A stretch of DNA of 30,312 nt from Pyrinomonadaceae bacterium. GTDB taxonomy: Bacteria > Acidobacteriota > Blastocatellia > Pyrinomonadales > Pyrinomonadaceae. The notes under the pieces are model-generated. The model was not told the DNA's origin and did no database searches. It worked only from the letters and a program-made list of their open reading frames with translations. Below are positions 1-29,977 of this stretch, piece after piece; position 1 is the first letter of the stretch; every line of letters begins with the position of its first letter. The stretch covers positions 1 through 30,312 of the forward strand of contig DATNDM010000210.1 in the NCBI GenBank assembly GCA_035553235.1, written 5' to 3'. A program made the position numbers and the translations under genes.

Positions 1-2523
1 CAGCGGCTGCAATGCACCGAAGACGTAGTGCTGCTGAGTTGTTGGCAGGGGCTGTTGTCGCAACTAACCGGCGAAACTGCTGTAACAACCACGCACGTCC
101 ACAATGGCCGCAAGTATGACGAATTAGCGGATGCGTTCGGCTTGTTTGCCCGGTCTCTACCGCTGGGCGTCACCTTCGATGAAGGAATGACCTTCGCCGC
201 GCTGGTGCAGGACGTAAATGAGCGAGTCACGGAAGGCGGCCAGTGGCAGGAATATTTTGTGCCGGACGAATTAGCACTTGGCCGGTGCTACGGCGGCGGC
301 ATTGGCTATGAGTACGAGCTGCGTCCGCATTCATTTGCAGGACCAGATGTGCGGCTCGAGATAGTGGCGCAGCAAGTCGAGTGTCAAAGCGAGACAGTGA
401 AACTGCAGTGTGTCCGTGCGGACGGAGAATTGACGGCCACAGTTGATTATGACCCGACGGTGTACGAGTCAACGTGGATGCAAATCGTCGCCGAGCAGAT
501 GAAGGAAATCGTCGACAGCGCAGTAGAGAAGGGAGAGCATGCCCCGATATCGGATTTGAACATGGTCTCTGAAACTCAGCGCCAGGTGAACTTGATCGAA
601 TCGAACAGAACGAGCAAGGAGTACCCGAACTCGAAGAGTATTCACGAGTTGATCGAGGAGCAGGTTGCGCGCACGCCCGAACAGATCGCGCTGGTTAGCG
701 GCATTGAGCAGTTTAACTATCGCGAATTGAACGAGCGCGCGAACCAGTTGGCCCATCACCTCCGTTCTCTCGGCGTTGGACCAGAAGTATTTGTCGCAGT
801 TTACATGGATCGATCTGTCGACATGGTCGTGTCCCTGCTCGCAGTTCTCAAGGCGGGCGGAGCCTATGTGCCGCTCGATACCACATACCCATACGAGCGT
901 CTCTCTTTCATGATCGCGGACGCTCAAGTGCCGGTACTCCTGACCCAGGAAAGCATGATGGCGCGCTTGCCTGAGCACGAGGCGAAGGTGATCTACGTCG
1001 ATTCTGAATGGTCGACTGTGGCAACGCAGAGCAGCGCCAATCCGGTCCGCAATGTCGACGCGGACAATGCCGCTTACGTTATCTATACGTCCGGCTCAAC
1101 CGGTATGCCCAAAGGCGTCGTCGTTCCGCACAAGGGACTCGTCAACTATCTGAGCTGGTGCACGGAGACCTACAGAGTGGCTGAAGGTGTCGGGGCGCTG
1201 GTGCATTCGCCGCTGGGATTTGACTTGACGGTCACGAGTATTTTCTCGCCGCTGCTGGCTGGAAAAAGTTTGTTCCTCATTCCTGAAGAAGACGGAATTG
1301 ATGGGCTGACAACTGCGCTGCGCAACGGCAGAAATTTCAGTTTGCTCAAAGTTACGCCGTCTCACCTGGAAATGCTGAACCAGATGCTGACCGGTGACGA
1401 GCTCCGCGGCAGGGTCAACGCTCTGATCATCGGAGGCGAAGCATTGTCAGGTGAAACCGTCGCTTTCTGGAGAGAGCATGCACCCGAGACAAGAATCATC
1501 AACGAATATGGACCAACCGAGACTGTCGTGGGCTGCTGCGTTTACGAGATACCGGATGGAGACACGAACGCCGGCCCGGTGCCTATCGGTCGGCCCATTG
1601 CCAACACAAACATTTACCTGCTCGACAAGAACCTGCGGCCCGTCGCGACGGGTGTCCCCGGCGAACTCTACATCGGCGGTGACGGGTTGGCGCGCGGCTA
1701 CCTGGCGCAGCCGCAGATAACCGCCGAAAGATTCATCCCACATCCATTCAGCGAGAAAGCCGGCGAGCGGATTTATCGCACCGGAGACATGGCACGCTAT
1801 CGGGACAACGGCGAGATCGAATATCTCGGCAGGGTGGACCACCAGGTCAAGGTTCGAGGTTTTCGTGTGGAACTGGGCGAGATTGAAGCTGTGCTCAGAC
1901 AACATCCCCAAATCAACGAAGTCGTTGTCATGACTCGTGAAGAGGTGCTCGGCGACAGGCGCATAGTCGCTTACGTCGTGTCCCCCGAGGGTGCAGATGT
2001 TTCCGTTAACGATATTCGCCGCTTCCTGAGTGTCAAACTACCTGAATACATGATGCCGTCGTCGTTCGTCACACTCAGTGCACTCCCACTGACACCGAAC
2101 GGCAAAGTTGATCGAGAAGCATTGCCCGCGCCCGGACTCGGACGCGCTGGTATGGAAGAGGCCTATGTTGCGCCACGCACTGTTCTCGAAGAGGCGGTCG
2201 CTCGGATATGGGCCGAGACTATCGGCATCGAGTTGCTGGGCGTGCATGACAACTTTTTCGAACTGGGTGGGCACTCGTTATTGGCTACGCAAGTGATCTC
2301 CCGAATCAGAGAGGAATTTGAGGTCGAGCTGCCGGTACGCATGATGTTCGAAGGCATGACGGTCGCAGAGATGGCTGCCGCGATCGTGAGTCGAGAGATG
2401 CATCCGGGTCAGAGTGAGAAGATCGCACAAACGATGAAGGCCGTCGAAGAGATGAGTGAAGGAGAGTTTGTGCAAATGCTGGAACTCAAGAGGGAGTCGC
2501 ATGACATCCAAAGACTTAGTTAA
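1..2523 (+). CDS. NRPS, 5'-truncated: C-terminal part of an atypical condensation-like domain, A domain (predicted Asn), PCP, C-terminal docking helix
   Basis: Frame is open from base 1 (CAG CGG CTG...). A motifs [41 protein letters not shown]. Manually extracted code DLTKIGEVGK matches the Asn-type code. [14 protein letters not shown]. Stop TAA at 2521-2523. Confidence 0.93.
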
Positions 2524-5500
2524 GAAGCGTGAACTGGTAACTTATCTACTCGAGGCTGAAGGCTTCCGGTTCTCATCCAAAGCTAAGATTACGCGCCGGG
2601 CCAACCCCGAAGAGCTGCCGCTCTCATACGCGCAGCAGCGCTTGTGGTTCCTTGAGCAACTCGGCGATACATCTTCAGCTTACAATATTCCGCTGCCGGT
2701 GCTTATCAGTGGACCTCTCGACGTCAAAGCGCTCACTCGAGCTCTCAACGAAATCATTCGTCGTCATGAAGTCCTGCGTGCCTCGTTTGGCTCGCTCTAC
2801 GGTCAAACGCTGCAATTGATCGCACCGAAGGTGGAGTTATCTATCCCGCTCACCGACTTGTCGGCAGTACCTGCCGAACAGCGGCAGCAGGAACTGCGGC
2901 GTCTGATCCAGCTCGACGCTTCCCGCCCGTTTGATCTGACTACCGGCCCATTGATGCGCGCCTCGCTGCTGCAACTGGACGTTGAAGAGTATGCCGCGCT
3001 GCTGACCATGCACCACATCGTTTCGGACGGCTGGTCCACTTCCGTGCTGCTCAAGGAACTGGGCATTCTTTATGAGGCGTTTGCGGAAGGACGTCGCTCG
3101 CCACTGCCGGAGTTGTCAATCCAGTATGCGGATTATGCGAGTTGGCAACGAGAGCGATTAACCGGCGACGTTTTGCAGGCGCAACTGGGTTATTGGAAAC
3201 AACAATTGGCCCACGCGCCGGCCATGATAGAGCTGCCGACCGACCGCCCGCGCCCGCCGATCAAGAGTTTTCGAGGCAGCCGCGAGGGCATTGTGTTGCC
3301 GGCCTCGTTGGGTGAAGCGCTGAGAAGCCTGAGCCAGCGCGAAGGCGTCACTCTGTTCATGACGCTGCTCTCTGCCTTCTACATTCTGTTATGGCGCTAC
3401 AGCGGGCAAGCCGACATCGTCGTCGGGACACCGATTGCCGGACGAAATCGCGCGGAGCTCGAACCCTTAATCGGCTTCTTTGTGAACACCCTGGCCTTGC
3501 GCACCGAGGTGCGCGGTGCTGAAAACTTCAGAGAGTTGCTCGGACGCGTGAAGGAAACCTGTCTCGGAGCGTATGCCCATGAAGATCTGCCGTTCGAAAA
3601 GTTAGTCGAAGAGTTGCAGCCGGAACGTAGCCTCGATCACACGCCGCTGTTCCAGGTGATGTTCATGTTGCAGCAAGGTGGCGGTGCGACCATTGAGTTG
3701 AAAAAACTTCGTCTCTCTCCGTTGGAGATCGAAGACGACACGGAAAAATTTGACCTGACACTGCTTGCAGACGAGAGCGAACCGCTAATGCAGTTAGTAG
3801 TGGGTTACAACACCGACCTGTTTGACGCTGAGACGATCAGGCGGATGCTGAATCATTACCGGCAGGTGTTACAGGCGGTCGTGACTAACCCACGCGAGCG
3901 GCTTTCTGAGTTGCGCCTGCTGACAGAGCCTGAGCGGCGGCAGATCGTCATGGAGTGGAATGACACAGCAGTGCAGTGGCCGGCTGCGGAAGACGCTAAG
4001 ATCGGCATGCTGCATGAGCTGTTCGAACGACAAGTTGAACGCACGCCTTCAGCGATCGCATTGAGCTTCGAAGGCCAGGAACTCAGCTATCAAGAATTAA
4101 ACAGGCGTGCTAACCAACTGGCCCATCATCTGCGTGGGCTCGACGTCGGCCCAGAGATTCAGGTAGGCGTAATGATGGAGCGTTCGCTGGAGATGGTCAT
4201 CAGCCTGCTGGCGATCCTGAAAGCGGGCGGCGCGTATGTACCTTTCGATCCGAGTTATCCGGAAGAACGACTGGCCTTCATGTTGAAGGATGCAGCCGTC
4301 AAAGTTTTGCTTACGCAGGCGGGGCTGCTTGCGCGACTGCCGGAATCAGAACGAGACAACTCAACTGTCAAAGTGCTGGCCGTGGATCGGCTGCGGGAGC
4401 AATTGCGGGAGCAAGCGAGCACTAACCCGCAAGTGCGGCTGACGGGCGCAAACCTGGCGTACATGATCTACACCTCAGGTTCGACCGGGTCACCGAAAGG
4501 AGTACTCAACACTCATGGCGGCATCGTCAACCGCTTGTTGTGGATGCAGCAACGTTACCAGTTGCAGTCCGATGATGTGGTCTTACAGAAAACTCCATTC
4601 AGCTTCGATGTTTCGGTGTGGGAATTCTTTTGGCCGTTGCTCGCGGGAGCGCGGTTAGTAGTAGCGCGGCCCGAAGGTCATCGTGATCCCGAGTATCTGG
4701 TCGAAGTCATCAACAGAGAAAAAGTCACGACGGTCCACTTTGTGCCGGCGATGTTGCAAGCGTTCCTCACCAATGAATCGGTAAGCGCGGGTTGTGGGAG
4801 CGTGCGTCGTATTATCTGTAGCGGCGAAGCCTTAAGTGTCGAATTAGCCGAGCAATGCATGGAGCGATTGCCGCACGCCGAGCTGCACAACTTGTATGGT
4901 CCAACTGAAGCAGCGGTCGACGTGACCGCCTGGCATTGCAAGCCGGGAGAGCAACGCGCGTCAGTGCCCATCGGCCGGCCGATCTCCAACACGCAAATCT
5001 ACATTCTCAACCGCGAAATGCAGCCGGTCCCGATCGGCGTCAGCGGAGAGCTTTACATCGGCGGCGCCGGTTTAGCGAGAGGCTATCATGGCCGGCCGGG
5101 CCTGACCGCCGAACGTTTCATTGCACATCCGCTGGGTCAAAGGCCGGGCGAGCGTTTATATCGCACGGGAGACATCGCGCGCTTTCGTGCGGACGGCGCG
5201 ATCGAGTACATGGGCCGCGAGGACCATCAAGTCAAGATCAGAGGCTATCGGATTGAGTTGGGAGAGATCGAAACAGTGCTGCGGGAGCACGAGCAGGTGC
5301 AAGACGCAGTGGTTATCGCCGACGTCGACGCCACGGGAGACAAACGTCTCGTCGCGTATCTGACCGTGGCAAATCATGATGTGCTGAAGACGACAGAGCT
5401 GAGAACATATCTAAGTCAACGCTTACCGGATTACATGGTGCCGCACGGTTTTGTGCAGCTTACCGAATGGCCACTGACGCCGAGCGGAAAGCTGGACCGG

Positions 5501-8500
5501 CGCGCCTTGCCGGCTCCCAACTTGAAACGGTCGCAAATGGACGGCGCTTATGTCGCCCCGCGCACGAGCGCGGAGGAAGTGCTGGCGGCCGTGTGGTCGC
5601 AGGTGTTGTCAATCGAGCAAGTCGGCGCCTTCGACAATTTCTTCTCTCTGGGTGGTGATTCGATCCGCAGCCTGCAGATAGTGGCCTTGGCCCGCCAACG
5701 CGGCTTGCATTTCACTCTTCAACAATTGTTCCAGCATCAGACCGTGGCGACGCTGGCGGCGGCTGCAACACAGCCTGAGAGTCAGACGGAAGCTCGTCAG
5801 GAAACAGCCAGTGAGCCCTTTGGCCTGATCAGTGCGGCAGACCGTGCCAGGTTGCCGGAAGGCGTGGAGGATGCCTATCCGTTAACAATGCTGCAGGGTG
5901 GCATGTTGTATCACATGCAGCTAACCCCGCAGACACCGCTTTATCACAACGTAAACAGTATGCAGCTCCGTGCTGCGCTGGACGTGGAACTACTCCGCGA
6001 GGCCGCCGCCATGGTGGTTGCCCGTCACGCCGCTCTGCGCACCGGCTTCGACTTGAGCCATTACAGCGAGCCCTTACAGTTGGTCCACCTGCATGCCGTC
6101 ATGGACGTCGGCTTTGACGACATCAGTTCACTGGATACGCAGGAACAGGAGACCCTGATTGATAAGTTCGTCGAGGCCGAAAAGCGACGCAGCTTTGATC
6201 TGAGTCAACCGCCGTTGATGCGTTTCTTCATTCATCGCCGCAGTGATGAGACTTTCCAGTTCACGCTCACGGAATGTCACCCGATTCAGGATGGCTGGAG
6301 TTTGCATACAGTGCTGGCGGAGGCGTTCAGCTATTACTTCGCTCGGCTGAACGGCGAACCGGTTCCAGAGCTTGAACCAATCGCAATCAGCTACAGGGAG
6401 TTTGTGCGCATGGAGCGGGAGGCGCTGGCGAGCGAAGAGCACAAGCTGTTCTGGCGCCGTAAACTCGAAGGCAGTATGACGCTGACATTGCCGCGTTGGG
6501 AAAAATCGCAGCAAGTATCGGGGCGAGCAAATGTCGATGGGCCAACTGAGGTCAAATTCCGCAACGTAAAAATCCCTCCGAAATTGTCGGAAGACCTGAA
6601 GGCGTTAGCGCGCACCCTGGCGGTGCCAATCAAGAGCGTGATCCTCGCCGCGCACATGAAAGTCCTGAACATTCTCAGTGGCTCGACCGACATCCTTACC
6701 GGCGTGGTCAGCAATGGCCGATCTGAGGAGATTGGTGGTGAGCGAACGGTGGGCCTGTTCCTGAACACGCTGCCGTTTCGTCAGCAAGTCACGGGGGGAA
6801 CGTGGGAGGATTTGATACGGGGAACATTCGACACTGAATGGGAGTTGTTGCCATACCGGCGTTATCCGATGGCCGCGTTGCAACAGGGTCGCAGCGGGCA
6901 GTTGTATGAGACCGCTTTTAATTTCATACATTTTCACGTCGTCGATAGTGTGGTCCGCTCCGGTAACGTCGACGTGTTGGCGACTAAAGCATCGGAAGGT
7001 ACGAACTGGACGCTGCAAGCGCATTTTTCATTGGGCCTGGATGCACTGCATTTGGACCTACAGCTCGAGTACAACTCATTAGAGCTGGCTGATGAACAGA
7101 TGGAAGACATCGAGGGCTATTACCTGGGCGTACTGCAGGCAATGGCGCTGAACCCGCTGGCCAATCATCAATACCAGAGCTTCCTCTCAGCCGCGGAGCA
7201 ACAGAAACAGTTGACGGACGGCCGCGGAGTCATGGGTGAATATCCGGTGGACCGGAGCTTCGATGAGCTCTTCCGCGCTCAAGTGGAGCTGACGCCGGAC
7301 GCGGTCGCAGTAGTGAGTGACACCGGGGAGGTAAGTTACCGAGAGTTGAATGAGCGGGCGAATCAATTGGCCCACTGGCTGCGAGCAGCGGGAGTAGGAC
7401 CAGAAGCGGTAGTAGGGTTGCTGGCCGAACGCAGCGAGGGACTGCTGATCGGGATGCTGGGAGTGTTCAAGGTCGGGGCAGCGTATCTGCCGCTCGATCC
7501 GCGGCAGCCGGGCTGGCGACAACAGCAGGTGATAGAGCAGAGCGGGATGCGGCTGGTGCTGGCCAGTGGCCCGTATCAAGCTCAGCTGCGCGCAGCGCTG
7601 CAGGGCGTGCCCGCAGCAGCGCAGCCGGAAGTGCATGACCTGGAGGAACCGTGGCAACCGGGTTCGCAGTGGAGCAAAGCGGCGGTGGTGACTAAGGGCC
7701 AGCCGGACCAACTGGCCTATGTGATCTATACGTCGGGATCGACTGGTGTGCCCAAGGGCGCCATGATTACGCAAGCGGGAATGATCAATCACCTGTGTGC
7801 GAAGGTGGCGGAGTTGGGGTTGGGAAGTGCCGACCGCGTGGCGCAGACAGCGACGCAGAGCTTCGACATTTCAGTCTGGCAGTTTTTGGCCGCGTTGCTG
7901 GCCGGGGGACAAGTACGGATCGTGAGCGACGAAGTTGGCCTCGATCCGCGCGCGTTGCTGCGGTTGGTGTCCGAGAGCGGCGTGACAATCCTGGAGACGG
8001 TGCCGTCGATGCTGGGAGCGCTGCTCGAAGAGCTGGAATCCGGGAGTGACCAGGGAGTAATTGGAGCGGCACGGCTCGGGCAATTGCGCTGGCTGATTGT
8101 GACGGGCGAGGCCTTGCCGCCGGAGTTATGCCGGCGCTGGGCGGCTATTGGAGCGAGCGAGACGCGGTTGCTCAATGCGTATGGACCAACGGAATGCGCC
8201 GACGATGTAACGCATTTCGAAGTGCGCGGTGAAGTGGCGGCGGGGACGATGCGGATCCCGATCGGGCGGCCGTTGGGGAACACGCGTTTGTACGTCGTGA
8301 ATAAAGCTTTGACGCTGGTGCCGCGCGGAGTCGTCGGAGAGTTGTATGTGGGCGGCACGGGAGTCGGGCGCGGCTACTTGCAGGAGCCGAAGCAGACGGC
8401 GCTGAGCTTTGTGCCGGATCCGTTTAGTGGAGAGAGCGGCGCACGGTTGTACCGGACGGGAGACCTGGTCCGGCAGCGTGCTGACGGAGAGTTGGAGTAC

Positions 8501-9199
8501 GTCGGGCGGATAGACCAGCAGGTGAAGGTGCGAGGCTACCGCATTGAGTTAGGAGAGATCGAAGCAGTGCTGAGTGGGCACGTGGCAGTGCAGGAGGCGG
8601 TGGTAGTAGCGCGTGCCGATGCGGGCGGCGAGCAGCGGCTGGTGGGTTACGTAGTGCCGCAGGCAGCCGGCGAGGAGAATGGTCCGGTAACGGTGAGTGA
8701 CTTGCGGGCCTATCTGCGCGAGCGGTTGCCGGAGTATATGGTGCCGCAGGCGTTGGTGCTGCTCGCGCAACTTCCGTTAACGCCCAACGGCAAGATTGAT
8801 CGCAAGGCTTTACCCGCTCCCGAAGGACCAGAGACACAGGAAACTCTGACGTACGTAGCCCCGCGAACCGAGTTGGAGCAGCGGATTGCGGCTATCTGGC
8901 AATCGGTGTTGGGGGTCGAGAAGGTCGGAATGCATGATAACTTCTTCGACCTGGGAGGACATTCCATCCTTTTGATTGAAGCCAGCAGTAAACTCAGGGT
9001 CGCGCTGGAAAGGGAATTATCGGTGGTTGATATGTTTCGCCATCCGACGGTAAGTGCGATGGCTGAGTTCCTGAGCGCAGCACAACCGCAAGATCTGAAC
9101 TTTGCCGAGAATGTGGAACGAGCGAGTGTGCGTCGAGTTTCTGCAAACCGATTGCGTGAAAGAAAGCAGCAGCGTCAAAACGCAAACGCCGCAAAATAG
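2501..9199 (+). CDS. Two-module NRPS: C(LCL)-A(Ser)-PCP-C*(non-canonical)-A(diamino acid, Dap/Dab)-PCP
   Basis: ATG at 2501 follows AGGGAG (2491-2496) and overlaps the upstream gene by 23 nt, so it is preferred over the track start 2456. C1 HHIVSDG. A code DVWHISLVDK (Ser type). PCP GGDSI. C2 starts EDAYPL and has ECHPIQDG. A code DIWEITADDK (diamino-acid type). PCP GGHSI. Confidence 0.93.
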
Positions 9200-9211
9200 T
9201 TTATATTTGTC

Positions 9212-9378: not shown

Positions 9379-9464
9379 TTGTCGTTGAAACCTCCCGACC
9401 GGACGCCTCCCAGCGAAGACCAGAGCGAATAACGTTCAGAGCCCGAACTTCGAAAGGCAGGAAG

Positions 9465-11921: not shown

Positions 11922-11924
11922 TTA

Positions 11925-12056: not shown

Positions 12057-12111
12057 ATGGCACCACCCCTAGTCCCCAGCTTTTAAATCGTAGTTCCCGG
12101 GCCTTCCCGTG

Positions 12112-12131
12112 AGCAGAGGATCGCCTCTGCT
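12112..12131 (+). promoter_or_regulatory. Small stem-loop just upstream of the PEARL-like gene (possible translational or terminator element)
   Basis: AGCAGAGG-ATCG-CCTCTGCT: perfect 8-bp stem ending 13 nt before ATG 12145. Function not demonstrated. Confidence 0.3.
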
Positions 12132-12144
12132 TGAAGTGATACCC

Positions 12145-14817: not shown

Positions 14818-14859
14818 ATAAGCCGTTCGTCCAGAGCGTAGTAAGGAGGGAGAGTTGCA

Positions 14860-15912: not shown

Positions 15913-15938
15913 ACCACACTCTGATCCCTCGCGCCGCA

Positions 15939-16102: not shown

Positions 16103-16148
16103 TCGCGCAGCCAGATAACTAATTAGACCAACTGAACGCGGCAATACC

Positions 16149-20798: not shown

Positions 20799-20828
20799 GA
20801 TAAGTTCAACCGCATTACCCGAAACCTA

Positions 20829-20987
20829 AACTTCGCGCAACCTGCACGAACGCCTCTTCTCTGTGCAACCTCTGTGTTCTCTGTGTCTTTGTGGTGGATC
20901 AATTCCGAGCAAAACACACCACAGAAACACAGAGAACACAGAGGTTGCACAGAGAAATCCATTGTGTAGGAACTCTTGTGCAAAGTT
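20829..20987. repeat. Family-1 hairpin repeat, copy 4
   Basis: Arms 20857-20895 and 20918-20956 (2 mismatches), loop GGATCAATTCCGAGCAAAACAC, degenerate outer IR AACTTCGCGCAA / TTGTGCAAAGTT. Confidence 0.9.
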
Positions 20988-21031
20988 GCTCGGCAGGGGT
21001 CTTATTCCCGTATTCATTGGAAAGAGATTTC

Positions 21032-24000
21032 ATGAGCACCAATCACAATGTCGAATCGCTGAGTAGACGAATCGAAGAACTTTCACCGGTAAGACGTGCG
21101 CTGCTCGACAAACTGCTGAAGGCTAAGGGTGTAGGAACCACACCCGAGTCAACCAGGATTCAGCGGCGCGTGAAAGCAGACTTCACTCCTCTCTCTTTCG
21201 CGCAACAGCGAATGTGGGTCTTGTACCAACTCGACCCGACAAATCCTTCGTACGTCATGCCTGATGCAGTTCGGCTGCAGGGACCGCTCGATATCTCTGC
21301 CTTACAGCAGGGTTTTGAAGAGATCGTGCGTCGTCATGACATCTTGCGTACTACTTACCACATTACAGAACGCGGCCCTTCGCAAGTGATAGCACCCGAG
21401 CAGGCAGTCTCGGAGTTCCTTGACTTCGCCTTCGTTGATTACAGCGAGATGCCCGCGGACGAAGCTGAAGACGCAGCACGTCGATTAACCTTAAAAGAAG
21501 CCGTAACCGTATTTGATTTAGCGCAAGGAAAGCAGTTGCGCATCAGAGTGATCCGGCTCAACGAAGAAGAGCACATCATTCTGTTTGCGCTGCACCACAT
21601 CGCTTCTGATGTTTGGTCTCTCAACATCTTCGCACGCGAAATTGCCACACTGTATGACGCTTTCTCGCAGGGTAAGCCGTCGCCTTTACCCGATCTCGAG
21701 ATTCAATACGCAGACTTTGCCGTTTGGCAGCGTGAGTTCCTGCAGGGCGAGACTTATGAAAAGCAGTTGTCTTACTGGAAGGAGCATTTGAAAGATGCTC
21801 CGCCGCTGTTGGAATTGCCCACCGATCGGCCTCGTCCCGCAATTCAGAGTTTTAACGGATCATCTCGATCGTTCGGGCTGAACAAAGCCCTTTCGCAGCA
21901 GTTGCTGACGTTGACGCGCCAGGAAGATGCGACGTTGTTCATGGTGTTGTTGACCGCCTTCTATATCTTGCTGCATCGCTATACGGGTGAGAAAGACATC
22001 GTCGTCGGCACTCCGATGGCCGGTCGAAATCAGTCTGAAACTGAAGCACTGATTGGGTTCTTTATCAACACGCTGGGCTTGCGCACTAAGTTGTCGGGCG
22101 AGCTTAGTTTTCGGGAACTTCTGAAGAGTGTGCGCGAAGTTGTGTTGGGAGCGTCCGAGCATCAGGACTTCCCGTTCGAGCAGTTGGTCGAGGAACTGCA
22201 ACCGGAACGAAGTCTCAGCTATTCACCGATCTTTCAGGCGATGTTTGCGTTGCAGAATGTGCGTGGAGCGGGACTCGAACTGCCGGGCCTGAAATTGGTT
22301 CCCGTGCTCAGGGATGCGCTTGTCGCGAAGTTCGATTTGACTCTGTTCATGGCAGAGAGTGGCGGCGATATCGACGGCACTTTCGAATACAACACAGACC
22401 TCTTTGATCGCTCCACCATCGAAAGGATGACTGGACACCTCGAGCGCTTGTTGGAAGGGATTGTTGCCGACCCGGACCAGCGCATTTCGGAATTACCATT
22501 TCTCTCGCCCGCGGAAGAGGAGCAACAGATATCCGCGTGGAATCAAACTGCGCGTGAGTTCCCAGCAAACGCATGTGTGCATCACCTGTTTGAAGAACAA
22601 GTGAAGCGAACTCCGCAAGCTATCGCTCTTCGCTGTGGTTCAGTCGAGCTTTCCTACACCGAGTTGGACCAAAGGGCGAATGAGCTCGCTCGATATTTAA
22701 TGTCACACGGCGTTTCAGGAGAAGCACTCGTTGCAGTCTGCTTGCCGCGTTCGGCCGAAATGGTCATCAGCTTGCTGGCAGTCTTGAAAGCGGGTGGCGC
22801 TTATTTGCCGCTCGACCTGTCGTCTCCGCCGCGGCGTTTGAACGCGATCCTCACGGAAGCGCAGCCGCGCGTGTTGCTCACCGTTTCCGAATGGCGAGAG
22901 CGGTTGCCCGTCGGAACAGAAACGATCGTTTTAGAGCTTGATGGTGCATGGGAAGACCACGAGTGGTCCATGTCGGGCGCGACAGTTCACGATACGCCGG
23001 CGATCGATCCGGACAATCTGGCATACGTCATCTACACGTCGGGTTCTACGGGACAACCGAAGGGCGCAATGATCACGCACAGGGGCGTCGTCAACTATCT
23101 GACTTTCTGTCAGAACGCCTATCCGTTAACTGAAGGCAGCGGCGCGGTCGTGCATTCACCGATTGGTTTTGACCTGACGGTGACGAGCTTGTACGGGCCG
23201 TTGGTCAGCGGCGGCTGTGTGTATCTGCTTGAAGAAAACGAAGGGGTAGAAGGTTTGGCGAAAGCGTTGCAGCAGCCGGGCCGGCCTTACAGTCTGATTA
23301 AGTTGACGCCCGCACACCTCGAGATGCTGAGCCGGTTGATCAGCCCGGACAGCCCGGTGCAGACCCGCTCGTTCGTGATTGGTGGTGAGGCGTTGTACGG
23401 CAATGATGTGAAGACCTGGCAAGAGCGAGCGCCTGAGGTGCGCTTGATCAACGAGTACGGGCCGACCGAGACGGTGGTCGGATGTTGCGTGTTTGAAGTG
23501 GAAGCGCAAAGCGATGTGACGCCGTTGGTGCCCATCGGACGCCCGATAGCTAACACGAGGTTGTACATACTGAATGACGACATGACGGTGTTGCCGGCGG
23601 GAGGCAAGGGCGAGTTGTACATCGGCGGCGAAGGCGTGGGCCGCGGTTATCTGCGTAACCCGGTGGTAACTGCGGAGCGGTTTGTGCCGGATCCTTTTAG
23701 CGAAGACGGTGGCGGGCGCCTCTATCGAACCGGCGACCTCGCTCGTTATCGCAAGGATGGGTCGATCGAGTATCTCGGACGCAAAGACAGTCAGGTAAAG
23801 GTGAGAGGCTACCGGATCGAGCTAGGTGAGATTGAAGCCGTGCTCAAAACATTCGAACTGGTCCAGGATGCCATCGTCCTGCAAAAAGGCGAATCGAGGG
23901 AAGAGCAGCGGCTGGTGGCCTATGTTGTGCCGAAGGCAAATACCGATCTGACGATCGCCGCTGTTCGTGATTACCTCAAATCCGAGTTACCGCCTTACAT

Positions 24001-25195
24001 GATCCCTGCCGCGATCATGATCATCGATGCCTTGCCGTTGACGCTGAATGGAAAGATCGACTACCGCGAGCTGCCGGCCTGGGACGCTGAGCAAGCGCCG
24101 GTGCGCACGTCATATGTGGCGCCGCGCAATCTTATCGAACTCCACGTCGCGGAGATTTGGCAAGAGGTGTTGAATGTGCCGCGCGTCGGAGCTACCGATA
24201 ACTTTTTTGAGCTGGGTGGCCATTCGATGTTGGGCATGCGCGTCTCCGCCCGAGTGTTTGAAAAATTTGGATACGAGTTGCCGCTTTCCGTGTTTTTCGA
24301 GGGCGGCACGGTCGAACACGTCGCCTCACTGATTCGGAACCAGACAAACATGTCGTCGTCGCATCTGGTCATGCTGCAAAGCGGCACTTCAGGACCACCG
24401 ATTTTCCTGGTCCACCCGATCGGCGGCGGCATCGTTTGTTACGTATACCTGGCACGACATCTTGGTGCGGACCAACGTGTTTACGCGTTCCAGGCGCTCG
24501 AGAAAGACGATCCGCACACGCAGGTTGAAGAGATGGCTGCCAGTTACATCGAGGCCATGCGCGAGGCTGAACCGAACGGGCCTTATCTTCTTGGCGGTTA
24601 TTCTTTCGGATCGTACGTAGCGTTTGAGATGGCATGTCAGTTAAAGCGAGCGGGACAGAACGTCGAGCTGCTTGCGATCTTCGACAACGGAAAACCGGGC
24701 TTGATCGATCAGGCGCCCGAAGATGATCCGGCCACCGGAGAGGATCCGGTTGCGCTGGCTCGAATTCTCGAAAACTTCGCGAACCTGAAAGAGCCTCTGC
24801 CGATCGATGAAGATTACCTGCGGCAACTCGGACCGGATGAACAACTGCTGTACATCATGGAGCAGGCGAAGAAGGCTCGGATCATGCCGCAGGAACTCAC
24901 GCTGCATCAGGTGAAGCGTTCGCTACACAATTTCAAGAGCAGAGTAGAGGCAGCGCGCACTTATGTGCCGCCGCTGTATCCGGGCAAGGTCACCCTCTTC
25001 AAGGGTGTCGAAATACAACCCTGGGACCAGGATTACTTAGCGGCCGATCCCACCTGGGGTTGGGGCGGAATTTCTACGGAGCCTGTCGAATTGCACAGTG
25101 TCGCAGGCTCTCACGAGACTGTGATCGCGGAGCCGGCTGTTATTGATCTAGCGGCAAAGCTCAAACAATGTATCGCTCGAATCGAGAGGAAGTAA
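21032..25195 (+). CDS. Terminal NRPS module C-A(Asn)-PCP-TE
   Basis: ATG 21032 preferred because the track extension from 20891 runs through the repeat. N-terminal docking helix LSPVRRALLDKLL. C HHIASDV. A code DLTKVGEVGK (Asn type). PCP GGHSM. TE LVHP, GYSFG (GxSxG), SH near the C-terminus. Confidence 0.94.
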   Translation: MSTNHNVESLSRRIEELSPVRRALLDKLLKAKGVGTTPESTRIQRRVKADFTPLSFAQQRMWVLYQLDPTNPSYVMPDAVRLQGPLDISALQQGFEEIVRRHDILRTTYHITERGPSQVIAPEQAVSEFLDFAFVDYSEMPADEAEDAARRLTLKEAVTVFDLAQGKQLRIRVIRLNEEEHIILFALHHIASDVWSLNIFAREIATLYDAFSQGKPSPLPDLEIQYADFAVWQREFLQGETYEKQLSYWKEHLKDAPPLLELPTDRPRPAIQSFNGSSRSFGLNKALSQQLLTLTRQEDATLFMVLLTAFYILLHRYTGEKDIVVGTPMAGRNQSETEALIGFFINTLGLRTKLSGELSFRELLKSVREVVLGASEHQDFPFEQLVEELQPERSLSYSPIFQAMFALQNVRGAGLELPGLKLVPVLRDALVAKFDLTLFMAESGGDIDGTFEYNTDLFDRSTIERMTGHLERLLEGIVADPDQRISELPFLSPAEEEQQISAWNQTAREFPANACVHHLFEEQVKRTPQAIALRCGSVELSYTELDQRANELARYLMSHGVSGEALVAVCLPRSAEMVISLLAVLKAGGAYLPLDLSSPPRRLNAILTEAQPRVLLTVSEWRERLPVGTETIVLELDGAWEDHEWSMSGATVHDTPAIDPDNLAYVIYTSGSTGQPKGAMITHRGVVNYLTFCQNAYPLTEGSGAVVHSPIGFDLTVTSLYGPLVSGGCVYLLEENEGVEGLAKALQQPGRPYSLIKLTPAHLEMLSRLISPDSPVQTRSFVIGGEALYGNDVKTWQERAPEVRLINEYGPTETVVGCCVFEVEAQSDVTPLVPIGRPIANTRLYILNDDMTVLPAGGKGELYIGGEGVGRGYLRNPVVTAERFVPDPFSEDGGGRLYRTGDLARYRKDGSIEYLGRKDSQVKVRGYRIELGEIEAVLKTFELVQDAIVLQKGESREEQRLVAYVVPKANTDLTIAAVRDYLKSELPPYMIPAAIMIIDALPLTLNGKIDYRELPAWDAEQAPVRTSYVAPRNLIELHVAEIWQEVLNVPRVGATDNFFELGGHSMLGMRVSARVFEKFGYELPLSVFFEGGTVEHVASLIRNQTNMSSSHLVMLQSGTSGPPIFLVHPIGGGIVCYVYLARHLGADQRVYAFQALEKDDPHTQVEEMAASYIEAMREAEPNGPYLLGGYSFGSYVAFEMACQLKRAGQNVELLAIFDNGKPGLIDQAPEDDPATGEDPVALARILENFANLKEPLPIDEDYLRQLGPDEQLLYIMEQAKKARIMPQELTLHQVKRSLHNFKSRVEAARTYVPPLYPGKVTLFKGVEIQPWDQDYLAADPTWGWGGISTEPVELHSVAGSHETVIAEPAVIDLAAKLKQCIARIERK

Positions 25196-25198
25196 GTT

Positions 25199-26869
25199 AT
25201 GAAGATCATCTATTTCATGATGCGGTATTCGCGGCGGCTGCTGCTGCTGGCCGTAATCGCAGGCATCGTTAGTGGCGCCGCAAACACGGCATTGCTGGCC
25301 GTCATCAACAACGCCTTAAACAAAACACCAACGCGCGAAATGACTTTGGCTATGGTGTTCGTCGGGCTTTGCATCGTGGTGCCAGTGACTCGAATAGTAG
25401 CGGAATTGTTGCTGGCCCACCTGGGCCAGGGTGCGCTCTACCAGTTGCGCATGGATCTGAGCCGCCAGATTCTCGGTGTACCGTTGCGGCATCTCGAAGA
25501 GGTCGGGGTGCATCGGCTCATGGCAGCGCTGACGGACGATGTGCCTACCATCACGAACATCGTCACTGTAATTCCGATTCTGTGTATCAACATTGCGGTG
25601 GCATTGAGTTGCCTGATCTACATGGCCTGGCTCTCATGGCCGTTGTTTTTCGCAGTCATCGCGATCATCGTCCTCGGAATTATCAGCTACCAATTGCCGG
25701 TGGTGAAGTCCTTCCATTACATGACGCTCGCGCGGCGGGAAGGCGACAATCTTTTCAGTCACTTCAGAGCTCTCACTGAAGGAATCAAGGAGCTCAAGAT
25801 TCATGCTGCCCGGCGCAAGGCTTTCCTCTCGGATACGTTGGAGACCACGGCATCGACCTTCCGCCGTCATAACATCGTCGCGCTGACGATCTACTCCATC
25901 GCTTCGAGTTGGGGGCAGATGCTGGTTTTCGTTGTGATTGGTTTGCTGCTCTTTGTGCTGTCCGGCTGGTTCGGCATCAACGCGCTGGTCATGACAGGCT
26001 TCACGCTGACAATCCTCTACCTGATGACACCGTTGCAGGTGATCATGAATACGCTGCCAAACATGGGGCGGGCCAACGTCGCGTTGAATAACGTCGAACA
26101 GCTCGGCCTGTCGCTTGTCCCCAGCACGACTGAAGAGGAATCGCCGAAGCTGCTCGCGGAAGGAAGTTCATGGTCCAGCCTGGAACTATCCGGAGTGACT
26201 CACAACTACCAGCGAGAAGGCGAAGAAAGTCTTTTCGTGCTTGGACCTATCAACCTGCAGATGTCTCCCGGTGAGTTGATCTTCGTGACGGGCGGCAACG
26301 GCAGCGGCAAGACGACACTGGCAAAGCTAATCCTCGGACTTTACACACCTGAAAGCGGCGAAATCAGTCTTAACGGCCAAACCATTACCGCCGATCTGAC
26401 GGATTACTATCGCCAACACTTTTCCGTAGTGTTCTCTGACTACTTTCTCTTCGATACGCTGCTTGGCCTGAACTCAGAAGAACTCGACGGGAAAGCGCGC
26501 CAGTATTTGGCCCAACTGCAACTTGCTCACAAGGTCAACGTTAAGGACGGCAACTTTTCGACGACAGACCTTTCACAGGGCCAACGCAAACGACTGGCGC
26601 TGCTGACCGCCTACCTTGAAGATCGGCCCATCTATCTGTTTGACGAGTGGGCCGCTGATCAGGATCCGCTTTTCAAGGAAATCTTCTATTACCAGATCCT
26701 GCCGGAGTTGAAAGCGAGAGGAAAGACCGTCATCGCCATCACGCACGATGACCGGTATTACCACGTCGGCGATCGCGTGATTAAGTTGGACAACGGCCAG
26801 ATCGTTTACGACAAGCCCGCCTCGGAGCTGGCCGGCGTCTTCGACGAGCTAACAGCAATGGCAGTCTAA
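25199..26869 (+). CDS. Cyclic peptide export ABC transporter (SyrD/PvdE/YojI family, fused TMD-NBD)
   Basis: Hydrophobic N-terminal half. Walker A GGNGSGKTT, signature LSQGQRKRLAL, family motif FDEWAADQDP, THDDRY. Starts 3 nt after the TE gene stop. Confidence 0.95.
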   Translation: MKIIYFMMRYSRRLLLLAVIAGIVSGAANTALLAVINNALNKTPTREMTLAMVFVGLCIVVPVTRIVAELLLAHLGQGALYQLRMDLSRQILGVPLRHLEEVGVHRLMAALTDDVPTITNIVTVIPILCINIAVALSCLIYMAWLSWPLFFAVIAIIVLGIISYQLPVVKSFHYMTLARREGDNLFSHFRALTEGIKELKIHAARRKAFLSDTLETTASTFRRHNIVALTIYSIASSWGQMLVFVVIGLLLFVLSGWFGINALVMTGFTLTILYLMTPLQVIMNTLPNMGRANVALNNVEQLGLSLVPSTTEEESPKLLAEGSSWSSLELSGVTHNYQREGEESLFVLGPINLQMSPGELIFVTGGNGSGKTTLAKLILGLYTPESGEISLNGQTITADLTDYYRQHFSVVFSDYFLFDTLLGLNSEELDGKARQYLAQLQLAHKVNVKDGNFSTTDLSQGQRKRLALLTAYLEDRPIYLFDEWAADQDPLFKEIFYYQILPELKARGKTVIAITHDDRYYHVGDRVIKLDNGQIVYDKPASELAGVFDELTAMAV

Positions 26870-26947
26870 CCCACTTTAATTTCCAGTTAACCAGACCTGT
26901 ACAACGGGCCCCACGCCCGGCTGTCCAAGTCTTTCCACAAACAAGCG

Positions 26948-27125
26948 TTGCCTCAAAAGTCCAAAATGATTCTTGGATCGGGTCAGTACAGGGAGCGGTA
27001 GCGACCTGGTCAAACGATGGTAGTCAGAAATCGTTAGCAAATCTCGCATGCTAATCACGGACCAGGTCGCTACCGCTCCCTGTACTGACCCGATCCAAGT
27101 TGCCATTCCCACTTTGAGGCAAAGC
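26948..27125. repeat. Family-2 hairpin repeat (REP-like), complete copy
   Basis: Perfect 40-bp inverted arms 26972-27011 and 27060-27099 (CTTGGATCGGGTCAGTACAGGGAGCGGTAGCGACCTGGTC), 48-nt loop, outer IR TTGCCTCAAAAGT / ACTTTGAGGCAA. Confidence 0.92.
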
Positions 27126-27167
27126 TCCACAAACAACTACTTCAATCAATAAACAGAGGAGACTCAA

Positions 27168-27392
27168 ATGAACAGAGACGAACAAGAAGACAACACCATT
27201 TACCAGGTGGTTGTTAACCATGAAGAACAATACTCAATCTGGCCTGCCGATCGGGAAAATGCGCTCGGTTGGAATAACGCCGGAAAGAGCGGCACGAAAG
27301 AGGAGTGTCTGGCCTTTATTAAAGAAGTGTGGACGGACATGAGACCTTTGAGCCTGAGGAAAAAGATGGACCAGGACGCAGCCGCGGCTTAA
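27168..27392 (+). CDS. mbtH: MbtH-like protein (A-domain activator)
   Basis: [35 protein letters not shown], 74 aa, SD GAGGAG upstream. Confidence 0.97.
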
Positions 27393-27402
27393 GCGGCTGC
27401 GT
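27376..27402 (+). terminator. Stem-loop overlapping the mbtH stop codon (possible terminator or mRNA stabiliser)
   Basis: ACGCAGCCGC-GGCTTAA-GCGGCTGCGT: perfect 10-bp stem. No poly-U tract follows. Confidence 0.3.
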
Positions 27403-27458
27403 GCTGGTTCAATTCCAGCGCAGGTTGCACAGAAACATACGGAAGTGAGGTGTTACCC

Positions 27459-28592
27459 GTGAGATCGTTTTTAGGAAGAGCTTTTCGTGTGACCATTCTG
27501 TTACTCAGCATTGCCTGTGTAGCGGTTGTGCATTCGCACGAAAACGGCCCTCGCAGAAAAATTTTCCCGACGAAGACGAACGGCGTCTTCGCCAACCAAA
27601 TGAAGGAGCAGACTAAAATGACCGAGACGATTAAGAAATCATTTCCGGTCAGTCCCGGCGGTTCGCTGACTGTGAAATCGACTATCGGAACGGTGAAGGT
27701 GCAAGCGGCCGATACTAACAACGTCGACATCGAACTTGTCCGTCAAATAAAAGCCGCCAACGAGCAGGAACGCGAGCAGGTCATCAAAGACTTGCAACTC
27801 GAATTTGTGCACAAAGGCAGCGACGTTGAAGTTCTTGTCAAGCAGCCTGAAGACTGGGACTGGAAAAGGATCAAGCGAGTTACGTTGGACATGAACATCA
27901 CCGTGCCGCTCACATACAACGTTAAAGTGCGGACGATTGGCGTCATCGAGACGAACGACCTGCAAGGCAAGGTCGAACTCGCCAGCTCCGGGTTTCCTCT
28001 GACCACAGGGAACGTCCGTGGCAGCGTCAATCTTTCAAGCTCAGGCGGTCAAATCAATGCGGGTGACGTTCACGGACCGGCGACAGTGTCGAGTGATGGC
28101 GGCGCCATTCGCATCGGCGATATCGACGGAGATCTTAACGTCCAGAGCAGCGGCGGCTCGATCAACGCCGGGCGCGTCGACGGCTCGGTGACGGCCCATT
28201 CAGCCGGTGGGCCCATACGCATCAGGGAAGTAACGAATTCGATCAAGGCGATCACGCAGGGCGGCGGGTTCAGCACCTATATCTCACGTCAACCGCAGTC
28301 TGATTTGAGCTTTGTGACTGACGGCGGCAGTGTACAGCTGCGGCTGGCCGATAATGTCGGGCTGAATCTGTATGCTGACGTTGGTGCGGGTTCGGTGCTC
28401 AGCGATTACCCACTTCCAGAGCGCGAACCGTCCAGTTCAATTGTCGAAGGCGTTATCAACGGCGGCGGACCAAAGATGACTGTACGTACCGCCGCCGGCA
28501 GTCTGACGCTGCGCAAATGTGATCCTGCGAATCCCGAAACAGAGTCAGAAAAAAAACCATCCACTAGACATGCATGTGGTCACAGCCATTAG
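27459..28592 (+). CDS. DUF4097-like beta-strand repeat protein with probable N-terminal signal/TM segment
   Basis: Repeated (S/T)xGGxIxxGxVxGx(L/V)xxx units (e.g. SSGGQINAGDVHG, SDGGAIRIGDIDG, SSGGSINAGRVDG) and C-terminal INGGGPKMTVRT. Hydrophobic VTILLLSIACVAVV near the N-terminus. GTG 27459 follows GAGGTG; GTG 27450 is the alternative start. Confidence 0.75.
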   Translation: MRSFLGRAFRVTILLLSIACVAVVHSHENGPRRKIFPTKTNGVFANQMKEQTKMTETIKKSFPVSPGGSLTVKSTIGTVKVQAADTNNVDIELVRQIKAANEQEREQVIKDLQLEFVHKGSDVEVLVKQPEDWDWKRIKRVTLDMNITVPLTYNVKVRTIGVIETNDLQGKVELASSGFPLTTGNVRGSVNLSSSGGQINAGDVHGPATVSSDGGAIRIGDIDGDLNVQSSGGSINAGRVDGSVTAHSAGGPIRIREVTNSIKAITQGGGFSTYISRQPQSDLSFVTDGGSVQLRLADNVGLNLYADVGAGSVLSDYPLPEREPSSSIVEGVINGGGPKMTVRTAAGSLTLRKCDPANPETESEKKPSTRHACGHSH

Positions 28593-28626
28593 GCGAAAGT
28601 CGATCAGCTACGATAAGTAAAACCCT

Positions 28627-28752
28627 GGTTTGAGAGATTTCTCTGTGCGACCTCTGTGTTCTCTGTGTCTCTGTGGTTGTAGTGGCCGGAAAATCACCAC
28701 CGAGACACAGAGAACACAGAGGTTGCACAGAGAAGCAGTTCAATCAGGTCAC
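28627..28752. repeat. Family-1 hairpin repeat, copy 5 (reverse orientation of the copy 2 subtype)
   Basis: Arms 28639-28677 and 28696-28734 (2 mismatches). Flanks GGTTTGAGAGAT and GCAGTTCAATCAGGTCAC are reverse complements of the copy 2 flanks apart from small indels. Confidence 0.9.
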
Positions 28753-28851
28753 CATTTAAAACCCACATCTCTTCAATTGTGGAAGACACAATACCGGAAC
28801 TGTCCTTCACCAATTAATCTTGTGAACAGGAGCACTGACGTTCTCTCAATC

Positions 28852-28874
28852 CATCACATCGTCAAGATGTGATG
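28852..28874. promoter_or_regulatory. Candidate operator-like palindrome upstream of the sbnA-like gene
   Basis: CATCACATC-GTCAA-GATGTGATG: perfect 9-bp inverted repeat about 65 nt before ATG 28940. Confidence 0.3.
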
Positions 28875-28939
28875 AGCGTCGCTCCCGTCATTTGTGTCAT
28901 TCCCCTTTAGAGAAACAACAGCTCGGAGGGCGGAAACCA

Positions 28940-29977
28940 ATGCTGGCAGAAGAAAGTATCTCGAGCCGTGCGCGTGACGGCGTTTTATCAGCTATCGGAA
29001 ACACACCACTGGTCAGGTTGCAAAACGTTCTGGGCGACATAACGTTCAATTTGTATGGCAAGCTGGAGATGCTAAATCCCGGCGGTAGTATCAAAGACAG
29101 AACGGCGATCAGTATCCTGCAACATGGTCTTGACACCGGTGAAATCAACGTCGGGACCGTTATCGTTGAGTCCAGTTCAGGCAACATGGGGATCGGTCTC
29201 GCCCAGGCCTGCTTGCAACTCGGGTTGAGGTTCGTCTGTGTCGTGGATCCAAAGACCACGCAACAGAACATTCGCATACTCGAGGCCTACGGGGCAGAGT
29301 TAGATTACGTTAGTGAGCCTGATCCGGTGACGGGCGAATACCTTCAGGCTCGTCTCAACCGGGTGAAATACAAGTTGGGCACTATCAGCAACAGCTTTTG
29401 GCCCAATCAATACGCCAATCTTTACAACCCAAAAGCCCATAGCCATACGATGCATGAGATCGTGACGCAATTGGACGGAAAGCTTGACTATCTATTTTGC
29501 GCGACGAGCACGTGTGGAACGATGCGTGGGTGTGCTGAATACGTGCGCGAGCATCACTTGCCCACAAGGATCATGGCTGTTGACGCGGTCGGCAGTGTCA
29601 TCTTTGGAGGCCCGCGCAAGAAACGCCTGATTCCCGGGCATGGCGCCGCCGTGACGCCGGCGTTATTCGCACCGAACCTGGCCCACCAGGCGATTCATGT
29701 TACCGATGTTGATTGCATAGTGGGCTGTCGCCGCCTGGCGCGAAAGGAAGCGATTCTGGCCGGTGGTTCATCGGGCGCCGTGATCATGGCGGTGGAGAAG
29801 ATCCGGGATTCGATCGAGCCCGATGCCAACTGCGTCGTTATCTTTCCGGATCGAGGGGAACGGTATCTTGACACCATCTATTCCAACGATTGGGTCGAGA
29901 CGCATTTTGGTTCCCTTGAGTACTTGTACGAGAGTTCTGATTACCCGGAACTGATGGAAGTTGCGGAAACTGCTTAA
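28940..29977 (+). CDS. sbnA: PLP-dependent 2,3-diaminopropionate biosynthesis enzyme SbnA-like (cysteine synthase fold)
   Basis: IGNTPLV, KLEMLNPGGSIKDR (PLP Lys), VESSSGNMG, WPNQYAN, STCGT, RLIPGHGA, PDRGERYLDTIY. The WxNQYAN and STxG motifs fit SbnA better than CysK. ATG 28940 follows GGAGG. Confidence 0.85.
   Translation: MLAEESISSRARDGVLSAIGNTPLVRLQNVLGDITFNLYGKLEMLNPGGSIKDRTAISILQHGLDTGEINVGTVIVESSSGNMGIGLAQACLQLGLRFVCVVDPKTTQQNIRILEAYGAELDYVSEPDPVTGEYLQARLNRVKYKLGTISNSFWPNQYANLYNPKAHSHTMHEIVTQLDGKLDYLFCATSTCGTMRGCAEYVREHHLPTRIMAVDAVGSVIFGGPRKKRLIPGHGAAVTPALFAPNLAHQAIHVTDVDCIVGCRRLARKEAILAGGSSGAVIMAVEKIRDSIEPDANCVVIFPDRGERYLDTIYSNDWVETHFGSLEYLYESSDYPELMEVAETA

Follow-up and report, generated by a model that had tools for sequence, protein, structure and literature searches.

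Among clusters of non-ribosomal peptide synthetase (NRPS) and polyketide synthase (PKS) genes, the sna (threopeptin) cluster of Stackebrandtia nassauensis is the only one with a PEARL-type enzyme to have been characterised, and its ligase follows ureido reversal: SnaE attaches Thr to a carboxylate that remains after the action of a ureido-forming condensation (C) domain, here termed Curea, which is recognised by the signature EHHxxHDG (PMC11212132). About two thousand NRPS/PKS clusters encode LanB-like PEARL-type enzymes (PMC11212132). In the present study we examined contig C210 of a Pyrinomonadaceae metagenome-assembled genome (MAG), 30,312 bases and analysed over its whole length (the window). 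The host is an uncultured soil acidobacterium, and the window holds most of an uncharacterised hybrid NRPS-PKS cluster of ~35 kb with a stand-alone LanB-like gene and a non-canonical condensation domain, designated C*. An earlier note on this DNA, which described the sna chemistry correctly, proposed that C* is a variant ureido catalyst that reverses the chain internally; the comparisons made here point instead to a collinear line in which C* would dehydrate Ser and the ligase would extend the released C-terminus. The cluster thus combines an NRPS-PKS line and a PEARL-type ligase minus the ureido logic of sna, and places a conserved Cys variant of what appears to be a CmodAA domain beside a diamino-acid module in the hard-to-culture Acidobacteriota, a phylum from which very few characterised natural products are known to us.

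The sna cluster and the window have in common a hybrid NRPS-PKS line, a stand-alone enzyme consisting of the LanB N-terminal part only, the lack of both an elimination domain and a precursor peptide, a PKS module predicted to leave a ketone, transporters and an MbtH gene. In sna the adenylation (A), carrier (T) and condensation domains are arranged as A-T-Curea-A-T with an EHHxxHDG motif, and the ligase extends the carboxylate left by urea formation, whereas the window has no Curea and instead has a longer line, a CmodAA-type domain, a supply of 2,3-diaminopropionate (Dap), TauD hydroxylases and an integrated thioesterase (TE). Since there is no Curea, the acceptor carboxylate must arise differently than in sna. 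Compared with the PEARLs TglB, BhaB and AmmB, the ligase of the window shares the fold family, the missing elimination domain and a weak PqqD-like stretch, and its candidate ATP-site residues are conserved at similar spacing, but there is no scaffold peptide gene, the enzyme is encoded in an NRPS-PKS cluster and its substrate is presumably a small non-ribosomal product. The described CmodAA domains closest to C* are those of AmbE (PDB 7R9X), McyA module 2 (PDB 8JBR) and Crz1-C2 (PMC11342130), which it resembles in the preceding Ser module, the diagnostic helix, the RR and DG residues, the GGDS-type T domain and the long T-C linker. It differs from them in having Cys for the first His (Phe in one relative), otherwise reported only for FclJ-C2 and Zmn17-C2, and in having a diamino acid as the predicted acceptor.

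All large genes of the window lie on the + strand. Domains were called by Pfam, and the assembly line, C* and the ligase are located as follows:

1-2523 (+): NRPS1, cut at its 5' end, with the tail of a C-like domain (C0) at ~1-570, A1 at ~649-2130 and T at ~2173-2376

2501-9199 (+): NRPS2, with C1 at 2606-3892, A2 at 4019-5515, T2 at 5558-5737, C* at 5843-7180, A3 at 7256-8800 and T3 at 8861-9085

5843-7180 (+): C* of NRPS2, with ECHPIQDG at 6272-6295, KSVILAAH at 6632-6655 and RRYP at 6857-6868

12145-14817 (+): PEARL-type ligase, 890 residues, with NDTIGFFGP at 12853-12879, SPD at 13960-13968, GELH at 14029-14040 and E-F-R at 14764-14772

16149-20798 (+): PKS module, with ketosynthase (KS) at 16149-17498, acyltransferase (AT) at 17739-18698, ketoreductase (KR) at 19479-20348 and acyl carrier protein (ACP) at 20469-20675

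21032-25195 (+): NRPS3, with C at 21176-22525, A4 at 22586-24070, T at 24122-24334 and TE at 24386-25192

The order of the line is A(Asn)-T / C-A(Ser)-T-C*-A(Dap-like)-T / KS-AT(malonyl)-dead KR-ACP / C-A(Asn)-T-TE, which is the order claimed in the earlier note, Asn-Ser-[non-canonical C]-Dap or 2,4-diaminobutyrate (Dab)-malonyl with a dead KR-Asn-TE, and domain calls, codes and motifs place each of its elements; the PEARL-like enzyme, the beta-hydroxylase (TauD) and the Dap-pathway gene (SbnA) that the note listed are likewise present. Adenylation codes were read by hand from the A4, A5 and A10 motifs, since insertions defeat fixed offsets. The codes of A1 (DLTKIGEVGK) and A4 (DLTKVGEVGK) are both of the Asn type, the former being listed for Asn (PMC12283262), and that of A2 (DVWHISLVDK) is for Ser, in agreement with a published prediction (PMC12964202). 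A3 has an acidic pocket of the diamino-acid type with the code DIWEITADDK, for which, as for its L variant, a literature search gave no match. That L variant, DIWELTADDK, is taken here to be of the Dab/Dap type. The Dab/Dap reading of A3 is based on its similarity to this code together with the co-occurrence of SbnA and SbnB, and Dap is favoured because the pyridoxal phosphate (PLP) enzyme of the cluster is an SbnA equivalog. In the PKS module the KS retains its active Cys and two His, and the AT is read as malonyl-specific because of its GHSIGE and HAFH motifs. The KR reads FFAAAAAS (20112-20135) in place of YAAAN, with loss of the Tyr and Asn, and is predicted to be inactive. The C domain of NRPS3 is of the LCL type, with matches in the PDB to the C domains of Txo1 and Txo2, and the TE has the motif GYSFG. 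Start codons were assigned at 2501 (ATG) for NRPS2, within an open reading frame (ORF) spanning 2456-9199, and at 21032 (ATG) for NRPS3, where a longer ORF from 20891 begins within a dispersed repeat.

Several lines of evidence bear on the class of C*. Against all solved structures its best matches were McyA module 2 (E = 3.9e-109), whose C domain follows a Ser module giving N-methyl-dehydroalanine, and AmbE (4.7e-65), a structurally characterised dehydrating CmodAA, with the next C types at 1e-43 to 1e-36. CmodAA domains are reported to carry a [K/R]SVLLAAH helix ahead of motif C5, to open C6 with R(R) and to conserve a DG (PMC11342130); the counterparts in C* are KSVILAAH, RRYP and QDGWS. 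C* directly follows the Ser module (A2), a position in keeping with CmodAA domains, which come right behind a Ser or Thr module; the donor T domain, T2, has the motif GGDSI, and the spacing from this T domain to motif C1 is 72 residues, compared with published values of 74 for modAA and 60 for LCL domains (PMC10212144). The ureido signature is found in none of the C domains of the cluster, which read ECHPIQDG (C*), MHHIVSDG (C1), LHHIASDV (NRPS3 C) and SMPAVCAD (C0). Of the three signature positions C* retains one, having neither the first His nor a His ahead of DG, and its place in the line is that of the third C-type domain rather than of a first domain joining two free amines, as in A-T-Curea-A-T or SylC-like lines. 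The Glu of its ECH is not a ureido mark, as the dehydrating domain of AmbE also has Glu ahead of HH. In a tree of 101 C domains from loci encoding homologous ligases, C* and two orthologues formed one clade (SH-aLRT 100) and the three EHHxxHDG domains another (SH-aLRT 99), placed among LCL domains; C* is 27-29% identical to these three, which are 41-44% identical to the LCL domains of the window. Based on these residues, matches and placements, C* is classified as a CmodAA-type, putatively dehydrating domain and not as a ureido-forming one, and the internal reversal advanced in the earlier note is not borne out. Ser would then most likely become dehydroalanine (Dha), given that no C domain of the cluster bears the ureido signature.

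The Cys variant of C* is conserved. An 11-residue stretch around the motif is identical in the orthologue whose ligase is 63% identical to that of the window, two more clusters read TECHAIQDGWS and another reads TDFHAIQDGWS, so that four clusters carry either ECHPIQDG or ECHAIQDG, and DFHAIQDG is the form of a fifth. In the window and in the related loci L002 and L011 (L denotes loci and G genomes) a domain of the C* type directly precedes a Dap-type A domain. A different arrangement was observed on contig C328 of G151 (reverse complement 26647-31737) and in L038, where a T domain comes straight after the CmodAA domain and the A domain is missing (C-A-T-CmodAA-T); loading of the acceptor carrier must therefore occur in trans, as it does in AmbE.

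The ligase gene lies in an ORF of 12109-14817, and the database gene call is of 890 residues. Its product is a homologue of the LanB glutamylation domain that matches PF04738 only (1.6e-44, both model ends covered). No elimination domain (PF14028) is fused to it or found elsewhere in the window, and the gene calls of six related contigs list none either; the genome has a single PF14028 gene, on contig C561, where it adjoins another LanB-N gene. A search of solved structures with the single ligase sequence gave no match, while a profile of 42 homologues matched TbtB (6EC7) weakly, at 4.4e-9, and the alignment of a C-terminal ligase piece with TbtB stopped short of the E-x-R position. D608, E630-x-H632, R770, F809 and E874-x-R876 are invariant in the 42 close homologues, and the same residues (D608, E630, H632, R770, F809, E874 and R876) are invariant in 83/83 homologues from Acidobacteriota, Chloroflexota, Actinomycetota, Myxococcota, Cyanobacteria and Proteobacteria. 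Published comparisons report that Arg743, Phe783 and Glu851 of TbtB are common to PEARLs and split LanBs, that Asp542 and Arg803 of TglB are PEARL-specific (Tyr and Leu in split LanBs), and that Glu564 and a conserved His complete an ATP-grasp-like site, for which Glu801 is also named (PMC11117183). The spacings agree closely: D608 to E630 is 22 residues (22 in TglB), E630 to E874 is 244 (237 in TglB), and R770 to F809 is 39 (40 for R743 to F783 of TbtB). D608, E630-x-H632 and E874-x-R876 are accordingly named here as candidate PEARL ATP-site residues. A weak PqqD-like (peptide-recognition, RRE) stretch is present at positions 292-364 of the ligase profile, and the intergenic gaps of the cluster are too short for a carrier or precursor-peptide gene. 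With no elimination domain and with the candidate ATP-site residues conserved, the protein does look like a PEARL-type (tRNA-dependent) ligase rather than a dehydratase, as the earlier note had supposed. A lanthipeptide or thiopeptide dehydratase role for the gene was considered and set aside, there being no elimination gene near and no space for a precursor, and CmodAA already accounting for the dehydration. As a separate observation, C561 (L007 684-3389 and 1-681, minus strand) encodes a LanB-N protein of 901 residues and, after it, carries a Lant_dehydr_C (elimination) gene, and the genome therefore holds, besides the PEARL-type gene, a probable dehydratase of ribosomally synthesised and post-translationally modified peptides in the form of a split LanB.

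Homologous ligases were surveyed in 80 related loci, the best of at least 569 in species-representative genomes, with flanks scanned up to 10 kb on each side of the ligase gene. NRPS/PKS domains were found within 10 kb in 62 of the 80 loci, and the Curea motif in three, leaving 77/80 with no ureido domain in the flanks read. From the window and these 77 loci it follows that ureido reversal is not the general reason for ligase recruitment. A TE-ending synthetase is encoded no more than 6.5 kb upstream on the same strand in 14 of the 51 loci having at least 6 kb of upstream DNA, a recurrent position that suggests tRNA-dependent extension of released peptide acids. Two genomes, G127 and G059, combine the ligase and a Dap-type module that is preceded by an ordinary LCL domain, which argues that the ligase does not depend on C*. 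Tandem ligase genes, two or three per locus, were found in 10/80 loci and suggest the stepwise addition of several residues; one relative has three tandem ligase genes and another has SbnA and SbnB directly before the ligase gene. The tandem genes of L011 (6812-14997), L055 and G059 (contig C24, 29157-34320) often stand directly after a Dap-type module with TE and an ADOP permease. Within the Acidobacteria the ligase gene often occurs with SbnA/SbnB and a Dap-type module; elsewhere most family members have no Dap genes close by. The nearest clusters, with ligases 63-84% identical to that of the window, share the gene order NRPS1, NRPS2, ADOP permease, ligase, then SbnB, TauD and a large synthetase; relative to these, SbnB has been lost from its position in the window, and SbnA is found at the window's end. 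The distribution of the ligase gene is patchy, with 13/150 genomes of the family and 0/4 genomes of the same genus encoding it.

Two further enzymes are assigned to the supply and tailoring of the building blocks:

14860-15912 (+): TauD/TfdA-family Fe(II)/2-oxoglutarate oxygenase (PF02668, 3.6e-51)

28940-29977 (+): SbnA-family PLP enzyme (TIGR03945, 431.1 bits against a cut-off of 349.95)

The role of SbnA is the first step of L-2,3-diaminopropionate synthesis, and its gene (PALP in Pfam) lies in an ORF spanning 28892-29977. The cluster agrees with the SbnA/SbnB pathway of staphyloferrin B, which has homologues in monobactam and tuberactinomycin clusters, in an SbnA above the curated cut-off and in the pairing of SbnA and SbnB that the related clusters keep. 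The window differs in having no SbnB, an ornithine cyclodeaminase-like enzyme, and the only SbnB-like genes found in the genome are partial and at the ends of other contigs: partial PF02423 genes lie at the starts of contigs C393 (61% identity to the SbnB of the orthologous cluster) and C490. In relatives SbnB is encoded between the ligase and TauD genes, a spot that in the window is a gap of 42 bases. SbnB and TauD were observed fused into a single 697-residue protein in L002 (12776-14869).

The closest solved relative of the TauD protein is the clavaminate-synthase-like At3g21360, and we infer that it beta-hydroxylates carrier-bound Asn. The C0 domain at the start of NRPS1 is C-like (PF00668, 4.4e-38) but has SMPAVCAD where HHxxxDG is expected, with no His. 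TauD genes lie directly before C0-like domains in G059 and L012, the latter domain reading LPAMQADA, and one or two methyltransferase genes intervene on contig C321 of the present genome and in G151. Interface (I) domains reportedly pair with stand-alone TauD-type beta-hydroxylases in siderophore NRPSs. C0 shares with I domains the loss of the catalytic His, an Asx-type A domain next to it and, in relatives, TauD genes just upstream of the C0-like domain. It differs in opening a loading module and in its predicted substrate, which in the window is Asn instead of Asp. By this analogy C0 would be an interface-like domain that recruits the stand-alone TauD hydroxylase to carrier-bound Asn. Identity as a lipo-initiating starter C domain was rejected for C0, which has no His and for which a search against solved structures gave no starter-C match.

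From the observed domain order, motifs, families and conservation we infer the chemistry of the pathway, including the acceptor carboxylate and the added amino acid. Asn would be loaded and beta-hydroxylated on its carrier by TauD recruited through C0, and C1 would add Ser. C* would join Asn-Ser to Dap and dehydrate Ser to Dha, after which the KS would extend the chain with malonate and the dead KR would leave a beta-keto group. The last module would add (hydroxy)Asn and the TE would release the chain, giving the predicted core (3-OH?)Asn-Dha-Dap-CO-CH2-CO-(3-OH?)Asn. Hydrolytic release by the TE would provide a C-terminal carboxylate as acceptor; the ligase would phosphorylate it with ATP and couple it to the amine of an aminoacyl-tRNA, adding one residue beyond the line. 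This TE-released carboxylate is favoured as the most economical acceptor: with no ureido domain the C-terminus is the simplest source of a carboxylate, and it agrees with the frequent TE-then-ligase order in related loci. We regard the whole, that is, a collinear line, dehydration by CmodAA and a PEARL-type ligase extending the TE-released C-terminus, as the best explanation of the cluster and as moderately probable.

A number of observations weigh against this explanation. The acceptor carboxylate is still a candidate, and the ligase gene is located mid-cluster rather than after the TE. The exporter encoded in the cluster is of the cyclic-peptide type, and if the TE cyclises the chain there would be no C-terminal carboxylate to extend. 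Identification of the PEARL residues is based on their invariance and spacing and not on direct alignment with TglB, BhaB or SnaE. The split LanB of C561 has E-x-R at the aligned C-terminal position, so that E-x-R alone does not discriminate a PEARL, although the C561 protein lacks the ExH (GELH) segment. The code of A3 does not by itself decide between Dap and Dab, and SbnB, the partner of SbnA, is absent from the window. C*, with Cys for the first His, may also do more than dehydrate, by analogy with FclJ-C2 and Zmn17-C2, in which the same replacement is linked to 'side chain conjugation' (PMC11342130).

This last point leads to the alternative in which C* dehydrates Ser and the Dap amine then adds to the beta-carbon of Dha, giving a branched or ring-closed diamino linkage and possibly freeing the Ser-derived carboxyl for the ligase. 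Bleomycin-type domains without both His perform conjugate addition (PMC11342130), a 2,3-diamino acid not accounted for by the A domains occurs in fabclavines (PMC5709968), and the variant motif is conserved in five clusters and precedes a Dap-type A domain in the window, L002 and L011. However, the second (catalytic) His is kept, so that amide formation remains possible, the module of the nearest solved relative, McyA C2, gives a simple N-methyl-dehydroalanine in the backbone, and the ligase accompanies a Dap module with an LCL domain in G127 and G059, independently of C*. We hold this alternative to be unlikely; if true, conjugate addition at C* would offer non-ribosomal peptides a second means of 'chain reversal', one that needs no ureido link. 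The variant-Curea proposal, in which the chain is reversed internally after Asn-Ser and the carboxylate left is extended by the ligase, as by SnaA and SnaE, can draw on the ureido-dependent action of the homologous ligase in sna (PMC11212132), on the Glu that C* keeps before its motif (ECH) and on the 3/80 related loci that pair a homologous ligase with an EHHxxHDG domain. It is highly improbable in view of the two missing His, the occurrence of the same Glu in AmbE (EHH), the low identity to the Curea-motif domains and separate clade, and the far better match to the CmodAA domains of McyA and AmbE; the amine of the donor Ser would, in addition, already be acylated by Asn, leaving no free amine for a urea.

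Two other alternatives concern the ligase itself. Rather than a carboxylate ligase, the LanB-like enzyme could be an ATP-free transferase that moves an aminoacyl group to the beta-amine of Dap or to a beta-hydroxyl, forming a side-chain branch. The frequent company of SbnA/SbnB and a Dap-type module in Acidobacteria is consistent with this, as is the presumed standing of Dap as an aza-analogue of serine, the natural nucleophile of LanB, and the tRNA-adenosine contacts R770 and F809 are common to both enzyme classes. The PEARL-specific and ATP-site residues (PMC11117183) are, however, invariant in 83/83 homologues, most members outside the Acidobacteria lack Dap genes nearby, and SnaE, the only characterised NRPS-linked member, extends a carboxylate, which together make such a transfer rather improbable. 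It is also conceivable that the ligase acts on the enolised beta-keto amide as a vinylogous carboxylate, adding the nitrogen of an amino acid in the manner of AmmB3 and BhaB5 on a hydroxyquinone. An inactive KR would keep the 1,3-dicarbonyl, and PEARLs are reported to accept vinylogous carboxylates (PMC11117183), but L001, L002, L011 and G151, which are the closest relatives of the cluster, have the ligase and no PKS module within the regions read, and we give this reading very little weight.

The genome (G000) comprises 3.76 Mb in 726 contigs, is ~70% complete and is fragmented, and the close homologues of the window proteins in public records are named Pyrinomonadaceae or Acidobacteria. The upstream part described as missing in the earlier note was largely recovered on contig C321, whose reverse complement overlaps positions 1-386 of the window with 96.6% nucleotide identity, the mismatch probably resulting from strain variation. 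C321 supplies the start of NRPS1, including its N-terminal ~250 residues; upstream of NRPS1 it carries a pair of paralogous methyltransferase genes and part of a second TauD gene, namely the 3' end. No contig of this genome overlaps the 5' end of C321, and the cluster could not be extended further within it. Given that the overlap is 96.6% and not 100% identical, a closely related strain in the same bin may be the source of C321. Further synthetase modules upstream of NRPS1 were considered and rejected, the upstream part of the syntenic G151 contig having a carbamoyltransferase-like gene, an M28 peptidase, a regulator and a subtilase. Because these genes upstream of TauD-methyltransferase-NRPS1 are not synthetases, the NRPS1 module most likely starts the line. 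The aspartate/ornithine carbamoyltransferase-like gene and the 803-residue M28 peptidase lie just upstream of TauD-methyltransferase-NRPS1 in G151 (C328; L118 6372-9777, minus strand), and, if part of the pathway, these two may carbamoylate a diamino acid or serve in product maturation.

The remaining features of the window are the following, the first three of which the earlier note does not mention in its list:

9465-11921 (+): ADOP-family duplicated MacB-like permease (TIGR03434, 1014 bits)

25199-26869 (+): ABC exporter of the SyrD-like cyclic peptide export family (TIGR01194, 546.8 bits)

27168-27392 (+): MbtH-like protein, an A-domain helper (PF03621, 3.5e-22)

27450-28592: DUF4097/LiaG-like protein with an N-terminal hydrophobic stretch, encoded between the MbtH and SbnA genes and with no obvious pathway role

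The ADOP permease, which adjoins the ligase gene in 21/80 related loci, probably serves export or self-protection. Additional NRPS fragments were found on contigs C335, C46 and C393 of the same genome, each preceded by its own TauD gene ~47% identical to that of the window, and represent a second related cluster or a co-binned strain; on C393 an adenylation-like domain and then a C domain come after the partial SbnB gene. The 3' end of the window is located in a repeat of ~140 bases present on more than 100 contigs, and the fragmented assembly is probably due to the presence of this repeat at contig ends. Dispersed repeats of ~80-140 bases occupy intergenic gaps at 30170-30312, ~26944-27136, 28560-28880 and 20800-21030, that of the 3' end (30170-30312) having copies of 85-96% identity on more than 100 further contigs, frequently at the very end of the contig. 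The NRPS3 ORF owes its spurious 5' extension to one such repeat, its first 29 residues matching many contigs, and when translated the repeats yield recurring 12-residue strings.

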